Virus record (IMG/VR): IMGVR_UViG_2521172589_000011 | Strand: one strand, 5' to 3' | DNA from: a virus | Lineage: Duplodnaviria > Heunggongvirae > Uroviricota > Caudoviricetes | DNA: 27,160 bases | Part shown: positions 1 through 6,000 of the stretch, one piece after another | Position numbering within the stretch: position 1 is the stretch's first letter | Layout: every line of letters begins with the position of its first letter | Made by a program: the position numbers

Positions 1-3000
1 ATGCTCACCGTTAAGCAGATTGAAGCAGCAAAGCCGAAAGAAAAACCATACCGCCTACTCGATGGTAATGGCCTGTACCTTTATGTCCCTGTGTCAGGGA
101 AAAAGGTATGGCAGCTTCGCTACAAGATTGACGGTAAGGAGAAAATCCTGACCGTAGGAAAATATCCGCTAATGACTTTGCAGGAGGCAAGGGATAAAGC
201 ATGGACTGCGAGGAAAGACATCTCGGTTGGCATCGATCCGGTAAAAGCGAAAAAGGCTTCGTCTAACAACAATTCCTTTAGTGCGATTTACAAGGAATGG
301 TACGAGCACAAGAAGCAAGTCTGGTCAGTAGGCTATGCAACTGAACTTGCAAAAATGTTTGATGACGACATTTTACCTATCATCGGCGGCCTTGAAATTC
401 AGGATATTGAGCCGATGCAACTGCTGGAAGTAATCCGCAGATTTGAAGATCGCGGTGCAATGGAGCGAGCCAACAAAGCCCGCAGAAGATGCGGCGAGGT
501 TTTCCGTTACGCTATTGTCACTGGTAGGGCTAAATATAACCCGGCGCCTGACCTTGCTGACGCCATGAAGGGATACCGCAAGAAGAACTTCCCGTTTCTT
601 CCTGCAGACCAGATCCCTGCATTCAACAAAGCACTGGCAACATTTTCAGGAAGTATCGTATCGCTCATTGCCACCAAGGTTTTACGCTATACAGCCCTCA
701 GAACAAAAGAGCTTCGTTCCATGCTATGGAAGAACGTCGATTTTGAAAACAGGATTATCACCATTGACGCCAGTGTGATGAAGGGACGCAAAATTCATGT
801 GGTCCCGATGTCAGACCAGGTGGTTGAACTTCTCACTACGCTAAGCTCAATCACCAAACCAGTATCAGAGTTTGTTTTTGCCGGGCGCAACGATAAGAAG
901 AAGCCGATCTGCGAGAACGCGGTGCTGCTTGTGATCAAACAAATCGGCTATGAGGGTCTGGAAAGCGGTCACGGATTCAGGCATGAATTCAGCACGATTA
1001 TGAACGAGCACGAATGGCCTGCTGACGCTATTGAAGTGCAACTGGCACATGCCAACGGCGGATCTGTGCGCGGGATTTACAACCATGCACAGTATCTCGA
1101 TAAGCGCAGAGAAATGATGCAGTGGTGGGCGGACTGGCTTGATGGTTTAATAGTTTAATAGTTTAATAGTTTAATAGTTTAATAGTTTCAGTCCAATATT
1201 ACATTTTAGCATTGCAAACAAATATTCACTCACGCAACGGTTAATTAAGAAGCAACCAAGTAATCTTAGTGATGATGTTTCAGAATGATGAGTAACAAAT
1301 CGTTAAATCAAGTATTCGATGCTAGTGTTTTGAGCCTCTTTAGCTGATATTATTGTCGTTTACTCTACTTTACATTGAATTGTTTGATGACCATGACTAC
1401 ACGATATAGATCTGATATTGATGGCCTACGAGCACTTGCTGTCCTTCTTGTTTTTGCTTATCACCTCAAGCTATCACCTTTTAGTGGCGGCTTTATTGGT
1501 GTTGATGTCTTCTTCGTTATCTCTGGATTTCTTATCACTGGTATTGTTATAAAAGCTATTGACAGAAATAGTTTCTCATTATCTGACTTCTTTAACAGAA
1601 GAATAAAGAGAATAGTACCAAATGTTTTTTTAGTTGCATCTTGTACAATTATAGCCGGATGGTTCATCCTATTACCAAAGGATTATTCTTCACTTATTAG
1701 TAGCTATTTGTACACATCCATCTACGCTGCTAACTTTTATTTTTGGAAAGCGACAGGAGCTTATTTTTCATCTTCTGCAGATGAGATGCCACTACTTCAT
1801 ATGTGGTCATTGGCCGTAGAGGAGCAATATTACTTTATATGGCCAATTATTATTTTACTTGCACTAAAGCACATTAAGACAAAACATATTGGTGTTATTA
1901 CATTAATAATTTCAGTATTTGCCTTTATATTCTCTGAAATAATGGCAAGGCGTTACGCTGGGTTCTCATATTATATGCCAATCACACGCTCTGGAGGCTT
2001 GCTTCTAGGGTCCGCCCTAGCATTAATGAATAGAGATTATAAAAAAATAAGGGAGTTTAATTCTTACATAGTAGTAATATTAGGAACTATTCTTATTGCG
2101 GCATCATCTGTAACAGTGAACAAATTATCAGTGTTTCCTGGGTTAAATTCTGCGATACCATCATTTGGTGCAATGTTAGTAATTTTAGGGGGGAACGGGT
2201 TTAATGGCAATGTGATATCAAAAATCTATGGTTCAAAAATAATATCCACAATTGGATTGCTATCATTCTCAATATATCTTTGGCACTGGCCGTTGATTGC
2301 ATATTCAACATATATGGGAGTGATAGACTCACTTGAAGTCAAATTGACAATAGTACTCCTGACATTTATTTTATCATATTTAAGTTTAAAATTCATTGAG
2401 AATCCAATAAGAAAATCAAAAATATCATTTGTTCGTTCTTTTATTTTTATTAACACATTTTTTATTGCAACTGCTTTTATTGTGTTGTTTATGTCAACTA
2501 TAACAAATGGCTTCAAATTCAGAAGTGTAGGAGAAAATCATAATTTAGATGTGAAATATGCTGGAATGGACGAAGGATGGTGTCATGTTAGCGCAGAAGG
2601 AAAAAATGGCATAACTTTTAATGAGTCTATGGCCAAATGTTATATAGGTGATAAAACATCAAATAAAGAAGCTCTATATATTGGTGATTCCAATGCAGGG
2701 CATTACGGTCCATTTGTAGATGAAATGGGTCGCAGGGCTGGAATAAAAATAAATCAACTGAGCACTTCATCTTGTTACCCAACAAGAGAAGTTAAGAAAG
2801 ATGGAGAAAACCCTGATGTCTGCATAAACTTCAGAAGAATAATTAATGAAAAAATAAAATCTGGTAAATATGATACAATTATCATTGCTAATAGATGGGC
2901 AAGGGATGATAAGAATATGTCATATAAAAACGCTAACTTCACCGAGTTCCTATCATTTTACTCATCTCACGCAAAGAAAGTTATTATTATGGATCAAATG

Positions 3001-6000
3001 CCTGAGTGGGTAATAAATCCCGCTGCCTGCTACGAGAGAGGAACATGTGATGCTGAAACTAATTTTGATCTAGCACCAGGATTGGATGAGTCGCGTAAAA
3101 AAATAGAAAGCGCAGCATCACATTTTAATAATGTTTATCTTGTTGACCCGTACTACCTAATGCTTAAGAATAAAAAATACACACCTTTCGCAATGGGATA
3201 CCCTATGTACCATGACAATGGTCATTTAAGCATCAATGGAATGATGTGGATTGCGGAAAAATACTTGCAAGATAATAAAAACCCACTTGAAGATTAATTG
3301 AGTTATAATTTTTATTGGTAATATGAACCTCTTAATTTATGAGAGGTTCATATTTTCATTGAAATATTTAATTGTGCTCCTTAGCAAAGCGCAAGCTACC
3401 TGCGCTTAATACTGCAGATAACGTATCTCCCACTCTAGTCACACTTAAGTTGCTAGTTCCTGCAATGTAACTAACAGTTGTCGTTGTTGCCAGTGTCATA
3501 ACTATTGGTATAGTTATGACTCGTTCTGTACCTCCGCTATCAACAAACTGAACAGATAAAAACTGAAACCTTCTATTTATTTTATATGAAAATGATAATC
3601 CAGATATGGATAATAAACCACTTTGTCCTATTTTTATATTCCAATCAGAAAAATCAGTTATGTTAGATGGGTCTATATTATTTTGCGAGTACCATGATGT
3701 TATTGCGCCTGATGATGTTTTTCCTTTAAAATAAACAAATGAACTACTTGCTTTTTTAAAATTATTATCACATATGATAACCACCTCTTGAGTTGATAGT
3801 TTAGTTTCATCATAGAATACGCTGGTAAGTACTGCGTCATCTGCGTTAACACCCCGTATCTCAGAAATCTTAGTCACACCAGCCTTGTCAGTGTCTTCCG
3901 CTTTGTTTATGAGAGAGTCTGTATTGTTTACCCACGCAGACAGCACTCTAGCCACAGGGGTGTTATACTGACGCATCAATTGCGAAACACCAGAGATAAT
4001 ACCTGCCTTTAAAGTGATTTCCTGGCAATTGTTGCCGTAAGCAAGGATTGGTTTATTCACCCCATCCCATCTATAATTGCCAACTTCAACATCAATTCGT
4101 CCACCACTGCACCATACAACAGCATTTGTTTGTCCTCCGTCAAACTTAACCCCATAAACAGCACCAACTTTAACAAAAGCGTAGCGTTCGGCGTTTATTT
4201 TCATTTGAAGCGGGTTGTTGCTGGTTCCCGTGACGTACCCAATATCTATACGGCAATTATCTCCTGCGCCATCTACGTTAATGCCGCGGTGGTCAGATCC
4301 AATAACCCCGCCAGAGCCGACAACGCTACAGTTTTCACAAGTAAAGAAACCAATAGGGTTGTTGTTGTGCGGTTTAGAATGAATGGAGTTATATTCTGTA
4401 CCTATCTTGCCGTTAAGAATGTAGGTAACATTTTTCATAACAGCTGTAATTGTGTAGTTATTGCCATCCCAAACCGTTGCATCAGGGTTAAGAAAATGTG
4501 CAAAGGACCACATACCCCCGGAGTTTAACCCCATAATTTCTGGCCCTACCGTGGGGTCATCGTAACGCCCCATAACTGTAACCCCAGCTTCGTGGTGTAT
4601 TTCTATATTATCTCGTAATGGATGAATAGAGCCAAGAACATAAAAAGTACCTGTTGCACCATATTCAAATTTACTGAATCTTGTGTCTCTTACCAGTTTT
4701 TGAATTACATTACGGTTATGCGCGGCGTTTAGCGGAACATATTCACCTTCAATAATGCCAGCGGAAGCGAAATTAGGCGTCATTAAAATAAGATACCCAC
4801 CAACTGCAGAAATATAAAATATAGGTGACTGTGGTTTTTCAGTTGTAAACACCCAATCTGTTACAACTGGAACATTATAATAATAAGTTCTAACCTTTTT
4901 CCCATCTGTTAACCCTAATATTGATTGGGCCTGTTCAACGGATGAGCATTCGAGAATAGCACCACCAACGATAATGACTCCTGCGCTCCCCTGTAATTCT
5001 TGCCGTAGCTGATCAGGATCATACTTCAACACATTCGGAAAATAGAACTGCTGCGAACCATACGCATCATAAACAGCCATAGAATGGCCTTGCACAGTTA
5101 CGAACTTGGCAATCTGTCCGTTATATACAGGATAACCAGCAGCGTTAATGATGATTGGTTGCGAAACAGGAACGTGAGAGCCGTCTTCGTTCTCCACATA
5201 AACCTGAATCTGGTTTTCAGGATTTACCGGGTCAGTGTCAATTTTACCGATATAAATTTTGCCATTGGCAACCGCTTTAAAAGAACGCGCCATAGTGAAG
5301 AGTTGCGAAGGCATGCTTACCACAACATTTGCGGTGATATCTGTCATTTAATTTGCTCCAGATACAAGGAATCGCCGCAGCATGGCTACGGTGAATTTTG
5401 GGCATAAAAAAACCCAGCCGAGGCTGGGTCGTTGCGTTGGTTATCTGTCAGTAGTTATGTACTGAAGGAGGTAATTCTTTATTCTTAAGTCTCATCCATG
5501 CGGAAAGATTCGTTGGTCCGTCTGGCTCATTAATATCAACATCTCGTGTGTGATTGATTAAAACGTCTCTCGCCATTCCGATAACATACGAGAACTCATG
5601 GCCATAGTCGTAGCATCTGCCGGAATAGTTCGATTGAATTTGTTTTAGCGCCAGATACAGTTCGCGGAATAATGCCTGTGAGCGGTTGGCATAATCCCAT
5701 AACCATACAAGGCTGTTTGCTTCTTTTGCAGAAAGCTCGTTGGTTTTCTTCTCTTGTTTGCCGATAAATTCACCTTCAAGCACTACCCTGTGGATGTACT
5801 CTACGGCCAGCGGGATTTGTTCAATTGAAAGTTCATCAATGCTGTCAATACCAAAACGCTGATGAACCATATTGTATGCATCGTCATAGCGAAGTCCTTT
5901 CTTTCCTACCAGCATGTTTACTGCATCGCGTAGCGGTGTTCTTTGCTCAACAGTGGTTTTCTTGCCTTTCACATACTCTCCATGTTTGCGAATCGAAGGC

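Follow-up and report, generated by a model that had tools for sequence, protein, structure and literature searches.

What is the role of the long AT-rich gene that separates the integrase gene from the tailspike gene in the argW prophage of Escherichia coli O104:H4, the serotype of the 2011 German outbreak of haemolytic-uraemic syndrome, whose O-antigen mimics the human sialyl-T antigen? We have addressed this question in IMG/VR record IMGVR_UViG_2521172589_000011, a stretch of 27,160 nucleotides (hereafter the window). Genomes of the O104:H4 outbreak lineage, among them 2011C-3493, C227-11 and 2009EL-2071, carry an argW prophage to which the window shows 100% identity. Our results suggest that the gene is lysogenic-conversion cargo (a 'moron') of an Sf6/P22-like prophage, and that its product is an inner-membrane O-acetyltransferase with two domains, of the AT3-SGNH type, that modifies the O104 antigen. 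We assign to this reading a probability of about 0.75.

The gene occupies a single long open reading frame (ORF) on the + strand, which in the ORF listing runs from a TTG codon (1375..3297) and has 640 aa. RefSeq places the start at the ATG at 1387, which gives a coding sequence (CDS) of 636 aa (1387..3297), and the database representative of the protein starts at the following ATG (1393; 634 aa); no clear Shine-Dalgarno sequence that would choose among the TTG at 1375 and the ATGs at 1387 and 1393 was seen. In what follows, Pfam residue ranges are numbered on the 640-aa ORF and motif residues on the 636-aa protein. The initial annotation of this region had proposed that the ORF joins an acyltransferase-3 (AT3) membrane domain to a C-terminal SGNH domain, that it bears R..H, GDS and D..H blocks, and that its architecture is that of the Salmonella enzymes OafA and OafB, and all three proposals hold. 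A Pfam search gives both domains far above their cut-offs: PF01757 (Acyl_transf_3) at residues 14-335 (1414..2379, + strand; E 7.8e-24, 84.8 bits for a cut-off of 31, profile positions 3-322 of 326), and, at residues 403-631, PF19040 ('SGNH domain (fused to AT3 domains)'), corresponding to the periplasmic SGNH domain plus its linker (2581..3267, + strand; E 1.8e-32, 113.4 bits for a cut-off of 27, profile positions 2-247 of 248). PHROG 6705, named 'O-antigen acetylase', covers the protein end to end (E 3.7e-147), and no Hexapep domain was matched in it by Pfam.

The predicted catalytic motifs are all in place. The R..H block is R15-X10-H26, the GDS block lies at 433-435 and the D..H block is D610-N-G-H613 (D-x-x-H); they are accompanied by G34 G35 F36 I G38 V39 D40, by FFVISG at 42-47, whose FFXISG form is conserved in AT3 acetyltransferases (PMC7448272), by R72 I K R75 (RXXR), and by the cysteine pairs 399/418, 463/479 and 548/554. 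We aligned 40 homologues, with identities down to 30% and with no OafB-type sequence among them. Invariant in the membrane part are R15, H26, G34, G35, G38, V39, D40, F42, F43, S46, G47, R72 and R75, and in the linker and SGNH part G433, D434, S435, D610, H613, C399 and C418, with C463 and C479 nearly so. In OafA, the abequose 2-O-acetyltransferase of Salmonella Typhimurium O:5, mutagenesis found R14/H25, G34, D39, R69/R72 and the triad S412/D587/H590 to be essential (PMC7448272). Their counterparts here would be R15/H26, G35, D40, R72/R75 and S435/D610/H613, a correspondence that rests on motifs and not on an aligned OafA sequence. The cysteine pairs correspond too, and in OafA their mutation left activity in place (PMC7448272). 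OafA differs from the enzyme described here in being chromosomal, in not lying beside a tailspike gene and in acting on abequose.

The profile made from the 40 sequences finds the periplasmic domain of OafB (PDB 6SE1) at E 1.1e-4, in an alignment that pairs the GDS and DxxH blocks of the two. An earlier profile that included GtrC of phage BTP1 had matched 6SE1 at E 4e-15; as this was partly circular, the profile was rebuilt without the GtrC row. A profile was required for this match, a single-sequence phmmer search of the PDB having given none at E 0.01 or better. The AlphaFold model of the protein has a mean per-residue confidence (pLDDT) of 89.9 and a predicted TM-score (pTM) of 0.84; its predicted helices fit ten transmembrane helices plus an eleventh at 348-372, followed in the model by a linker with the C399/C418 pair, the first SGNH strand (428-433) and an alpha/beta domain. 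When the model was compared with the PDB by Foldseek, 6SE1 was the top match (E 7.2e-7, target TM-score 0.63, 259 aligned columns) and PatB, a peptidoglycan O-acetyltransferase, the second best. Taken together, sequence and model support the assignment of this protein to the AT3-SGNH class of carbohydrate O-acetyltransferases that contains OafA, OafB and OatA.

How does the gene compare with the modification genes of known prophages? A close parallel is OafB, present in BTP1 and S. Paratyphi A as the family-II 'GtrC', a rhamnose 2,3-O-acetyltransferase. Like the protein described here, it consists of an AT3 domain, an eleventh helix, a linker and an SGNH domain; BTP1 GtrC, of 640 aa, is nearly equal in length and its catalytic motifs match, and in BTP1 gtrC lies near int and converges on a P22-type tailspike gene, as does our acyltransferase gene. 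The two proteins are 33% identical over 568 columns, in an alignment that fades in the last 90 residues, and upstream of the present gene there is no gtrA remnant. The O104 repeat unit is composed of Gal, Neu5Ac, Gal and GalNAc, with the internal sialic acid substituted at C4; since it contains no rhamnose, the acceptor must differ from that of OafB. An OafB orthologue would be a close relative that acts on rhamnose, and judged by its sequence the present protein is not one. The initial annotation had also set the gene apart from two other occupants of this slot, and the comparisons agree. In phage Sf6 the order is the same (int, acetyltransferase, terminator, convergent tailspike, at argW), with an annotated terminator between oac and the tailspike gene; however, the Sf6 Oac, which acts on a Shigella flexneri group 6 antigen, is a 333-aa protein with an AT3 domain and no SGNH domain, and shows 25% identity over 230 columns of the membrane domain. 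In prophage CPS-53 of E. coli K-12, intS is followed at the same site by yfdG, yfdH and yfdI (gtrA, gtrB and a serotype-specific glucosyltransferase), whereas here a single ORF lies between int and tailspike in place of such a gtrABS cassette.

We propose that the enzyme works by the mechanism shown for OafA and OafB, in which acetyl is passed from the AT3 to the SGNH domain (PMC7448272, PMC9833829). By this analogy, the ten-helix AT3 domain would take acetyl from cytoplasmic acetyl-CoA across the membrane, the eleventh helix and the structured linker would position the SGNH domain in the periplasm, and the Ser435/Asp610/His613 triad would pass the acetyl on to one of the sugars in the O104 (= K9) repeat. 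Lysogens would then display a modified O104 surface, on which recognition by the prophage's own tailspike would not be abolished. The step to the O104 antigen we infer from the association of the gene with its hosts and from the O104-specific tailspike encoded beside it, which are considered below.

Base composition and homology both mark the gene as part of a cassette. The region 1159-3360 has a G+C content (GC) of 0.334 and the CDS one of 0.342 (0.279 at third codon positions, GC3), compared with 0.479 for int (GC3 0.534) and 0.473 for the remaining 22 kb of the window, and the AT-rich tract continues past 3360 into the 3' end of the tailspike gene (3368-3900, GC 0.356). The view that the gene and its flanks, much more AT-rich than int and the virion genes, form a horizontally exchanged cargo cassette, already put forward in the initial annotation, is strengthened by comparison with two sister prophages, those of an O26 strain and of isolate CNR85I8, which share int and virion genes at ~97% identity. 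Homology to them ends at 1144 and resumes at 5001-5009, at the junction after the head-binding domain of the tailspike. These breakpoints indicate that the exchangeable block comprises the acyltransferase gene and the receptor-binding part of the tailspike gene. The argW prophage of O26:H11 strain 11368 has in the same slot a different acyltransferase gene (positions 2903-4045 of locus L005), likewise AT-rich (0.344); its product has 380 aa and the AT3 domain alone, without SGNH, is 26% identical to ours, and its gene is co-directional with its different tailspike gene. In CNR85I8 the cargo slot holds just a 95-aa hypothetical gene.

In which hosts is the gene found? Among 5426 complete E. coli genomes it is present in 24, and all 24 have the O104 wzy gene, found in 37 genomes in total; it is absent from the other 5389, those without O104 wzy (Fisher p 5e-57, for lineages that are not independent). 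A 'distant' blastn search detected no diverged copy in the 13 O104-wzy genomes without the gene, and none of full length anywhere else. The carriers do not form a single clone, and the gene occupies three chromosomal sites: argW (O104:H4, 55989, the NCCP isolates and TOK-001), dacD-sbcB (NCTC9104, positions 11908-16203 of locus L004, and MRE162) and bioA-ybhB (the giraffe strain A11). At the last two sites ~55-85 bp of the intS 3' end accompanies the cassette without the intS gene, and the adjoining tailspike is a second allele, the two alleles having 79% protein identity, down to 58-70% in stretches of the receptor-binding region. In these loci the acyltransferase gene shows at most 9 differences in 1911 nt (at least 99.5% identity) and 0-2 amino acid changes, with the ORF intact in all eight loci read. 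The acyltransferase segment thus also appears to move, or to persist, by itself, because it is at least 99.5% identical beside tailspike alleles that are only 79% identical. At all three sites the cargo gene adjoins the receptor-binding gene at the attP-proximal end, with putative regulatory signals of its own and an atypical composition.

Might the enzyme instead act on another envelope glycan (enterobacterial common antigen, colanic acid, core oligosaccharide or peptidoglycan), the link with O104 being a by-product of host range? The polymers acylated by AT3 and AT3-SGNH proteins are diverse (PMC9558356), and the only NCBIfam match of the protein is a sub-threshold AT3-domain match to SucT. 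We consider this improbable, since the gene is conserved and always found in O104-wzy hosts while prophage backbone, integration site and tailspike allele vary, since both the closest phage protein family and the closest protein of solved structure are lipopolysaccharide (LPS) O-antigen acetylases, and since the characterised phage acyltransferases encoded beside a receptor-binding gene (Sf6 Oac, BTP1 GtrC, phiV10) modify the O-antigen. A role on peptidoglycan like that of OatA was considered separately and rejected as unlikely, given the same family and structure and the O104-only hosts.

Several points nevertheless weigh against a role in O104 modification. The tailspike's host range alone could confine the gene to O104 hosts, and 13 of the 37 O104-wzy genomes do without it, which makes it dispensable for producing the O104 antigen. 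The O104 cluster, as seen in strain 55989 (locus L003), contains genes for an acetyltransferase of the NeuD/NnaD family and for a NeuA that ends in a GDSL esterase domain (13057-14322 and 15373-15993), and this acetyltransferase of its own could explain the O-acetylation reported for the sialic acid. Identity to any characterised enzyme is only the 33% seen with BTP1 GtrC, and our literature search found no functional study of, or experiment on, this protein.

Would the modification protect a lysogen from its own phage? In BTP1, which has the same gene arrangement, GtrC is both required and sufficient for protection and maintains the length of the O-antigen (PMC4413052), and one could imagine that here, too, acetylation blocks recognition or cleavage by the prophage's own tailspike, barring superinfection and protecting the lysogen's O-antigen. 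The tail-to-tail arrangement of acyltransferase and receptor-binding genes in four of five homologue loci would fit such self-exclusion. Published pyocin experiments make it rather unlikely in O104. Scholl et al. synthesised exactly this tailspike and fused its residues 114-659 to an R-type pyocin, which killed specifically O104 and K9 strains (PMC3303846). Carriers of the gene were killed (outbreak isolates, 2009EL-2050, 2009EL-2071 and 55989), and so were RM9387 and 94-3024 (PMC3303846, Table 1), in whose genomes (NZ_CP009104 and NZ_CP009106) we find O104 wzy and not the acyltransferase gene. The assay was qualitative and acyltransferase expression was not checked in it; the killing of carriers and non-carriers alike therefore means that, if the O-antigen was modified under those conditions, the cognate tailspike could still recognise it, in contrast to BTP1, where GtrC blocks the phage's own tailspike. 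Partial protection, protection from cleavage and not from binding, protection against other phages or a role in the interaction with the host are all possible.

Relatives of the protein at 55-68% identity occur in Enterobacter, Buttiauxella, Morganella and other Enterobacterales, and each of the five loci examined belongs to a prophage. In four of these the acyltransferase gene lies at the prophage end and converges on an identifiable tailspike or tail-fibre gene, and in the fifth on two ORFs without a Pfam assignment; the backbones are podovirus-like, siphovirus-like or Mu-like, and the acyltransferase genes are all more AT-rich than their surroundings. This pattern is as expected of a receptor-modifying conversion gene. 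Just upstream of two of the homologues there are LexA-box-like palindromes, TACTGTATACATATACAGTA and TACTGTATGTATACACAGTA (locus L008, ~9940-9960; locus L010, ~9910-9935); the divergent neighbour of the homologue in L010 is of the Peptidase_S24 type, and the neighbours in L008 have no Pfam assignment.

How would the gene be expressed? Its AT-rich 5' flank (1186..1386, + strand; GC of 1159-1386, 0.298) moves with it, having been seen only in the 24 carriers, and presumably holds a promoter of its own. An extended -10-like sequence, TGaTATTAT, can be picked out by eye at 1345-1353, although a scan for consensus promoters placed none within 1159-1386 and in total reported fewer sites than it did for shuffled sequences. 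Downstream, a perfect 12-bp inverted repeat with a 9-nt spacer (3321..3353) stands between the convergent stop codons of the acyltransferase and tailspike genes, just where the initial annotation had pointed it out; direct reading and folding agree on it. Its arms (3321-3332 and 3342-3353) are fully complementary and 9 nt apart. For the 70-nt intergenic RNA the folding energy is -24 kcal/mol on the + strand (z = -6.0, none of 200 shuffles as good) and -16.3 kcal/mol on the - strand (z = -4.9), and a U run (UUUUC) follows the stem on the + strand only. The hairpin, in a position equivalent to that of the Sf6 terminator, is likely to be a terminator, mainly for the acyltransferase transcript. 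Our terminator scan, which covered loops of 3-8 nt only, missed this 9-nt-loop hairpin, and a search of Rfam gave nothing meaningful, just a sub-threshold snoRNA match. With an AT-rich upstream region and a hairpin terminator of its own, the gene would be expressible from a silent, even defective, prophage.

The outbreak-lineage prophage is itself a remnant: IS1 has removed its lysis, replication and immunity regions. Together with the absence of a consensus promoter in the 5' flank and of a clear ribosome-binding site, and with the like killing of carriers and non-carriers by the pyocin, the IS1-truncated state might suggest a silent passenger, unexpressed or inactive and kept merely by its position between int and tailspike. 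We give this little credence, since the 1.9-kb ORF and all its catalytic residues are intact in every locus read, even in remnants and beside disrupted (TOK-001) or diverged tailspikes, and an AT-rich ORF of such length is unlikely to remain open by chance.

The left end of the cassette carries a further unusual element. The left homology breakpoint coincides with an 8-bp tandem array, (TTTAATAG)x5, at 1146..1185 (Tandem Repeats Finder: period 8, 5.5 copies, 100% matches), which ends intS, supplying its final four codons and its stop, and presents stops in all three forward frames; it sits outside the acyltransferase ORF, 201 nt upstream of its start. The number of copies varies widely among loci that are otherwise at least 99.5% identical: three in TOK-001; four in 55989, NCCP13905 and NCCP15648; five in the window, 1070/13 and 2009EL-2050; nine in NCTC9104; and twelve in A11; and even among MRE162 substrains (13 in UK and FRA, five in NOR). 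Nothing comparable was found upstream of five homologues from other genera or of BTP1 gtrC, so the repeat is not a feature of the family. That it affects acyltransferase expression is speculation on our part.

The remainder of the prophage is of a familiar kind. The cargo slot is bordered on its left by intS (1..1158, + strand), the integrase gene of the argW prophage, recognised by the Pfam families Phage_integrase, Phage_int_M and Arm-DNA-bind_3; its product and the Sf6 integrase share 99% identity over 381 aa, with differences confined to the last 4 residues, and a tRNA-Arg gene lies upstream of intS in matching genomes. On its right is the gene of the 659-aa P22-type tailspike (3368..5347, - strand; Pfam Head_binding, E 2.7e-67, residues 1-113), in which the head-binding domain takes up ~5006-5347 and the receptor-binding part 3368 to ~5005. 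In TOK-001 the tailspike gene is split (positions 5208-7188 of locus L012) into a 477-aa 'phage tail protein' and a head-binding pseudogene, and in 2009EL-2050 it is annotated as shorter (1713 bp), the neighbouring acyltransferase gene being intact in both. The virion genes are P22-like. At ~21800-25900 of the window (24847-30546 of locus L024) the terminase genes are followed by IS1 and then by the early-left genes cIII, kil, erf, abc2 and torI. Aligned to 2011C-3493, the first 25 kb of the window fall into two pieces that span 27,163 bp, so that the window lacks ~2.1 kb found in that genome.

Which sugar would accept the acetyl group? The O104 structure determined by Czuchry in 2015 reportedly contains Neu5,7,9Ac3. 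According to a review, the sialic acids of the five O antigens with Neu5Ac that it treats, O104 included, comprise a 7,9-di-O-acetylated derivative (PMC7685785), and the enzymes responsible for O-acetylated sialic acid in the O-antigens of E. coli were described in a 2022 review as not well characterised (PMC9631793). E. coli K1, whose cluster the O104 cluster resembles, has the same pair of NeuD and NeuA with an esterase domain, and there polymer O-acetylation is carried out by a separate enzyme, NeuO of prophage CUS-3 (PMC3046976, PMC8319020). The known bacterial sialate O-acetyltransferases treated in PMC8319020 include none of the AT3 type, and Lag1, an AT3-only enzyme, acetylates the related legionaminic acid (PMC9558356). 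We offer as a tentative idea, possible and yet short of probable, that the 7- and/or 9-O-acetyl groups on the internal sialic acid of O104/K9 are added after export by the prophage enzyme rather than by the NeuD homologue encoded in the O104 cluster. NeuO (PMC3046976, PMC8319020) is likewise the cargo of a P22-like argW prophage, has a short tandem repeat tied to its gene and O-acetylates a sialic-acid-containing surface polymer. It differs in being a soluble cytoplasmic hexapeptide-repeat enzyme with heptanucleotide repeats inside its ORF, whereas here we find a predicted AT3-SGNH membrane protein, a period-8 repeat 201 nt upstream and a sialic acid acceptor that is only putative.

What does this locus add to the biology of these phages? 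By its sequence the gene appears to be an ordinary member of a well-described family, in the expected place of a well-known prophage type, and both its label as a putative O-antigen acetylase, given in 2012 by Scholl et al. to EGR74046 (PMC3303846), and the O104 specificity of the tailspike were already known. New are its distribution in O104-wzy genomes only, its presence at three sites and beside two tailspike alleles, its prophage-borne relatives, the hypervariable repeat and the cross-reading with the pyocin data. The interest lies in the acceptor question, posed in a medically notorious serogroup, and in the variable repeat. Should sialic acid be the acceptor, this would be the first AT3-SGNH sialate O-acetyltransferase and a periplasmic counterpart of CUS-3 NeuO in the same argW slot; the upstream 8-bp repeat might modulate its expression, and O-acetylation would be a variable, prophage-dependent trait that distinguishes O104:H4 carriers from O104:H21 and O104:H7 non-carriers. 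If the gene is responsible for this modification, O-acetylation would differ from one O104 lineage to another, which would bear on serology, on resistance to sialidases and esterases in the gut, on phage and pyocin targeting and on the design of glycoconjugate vaccines.

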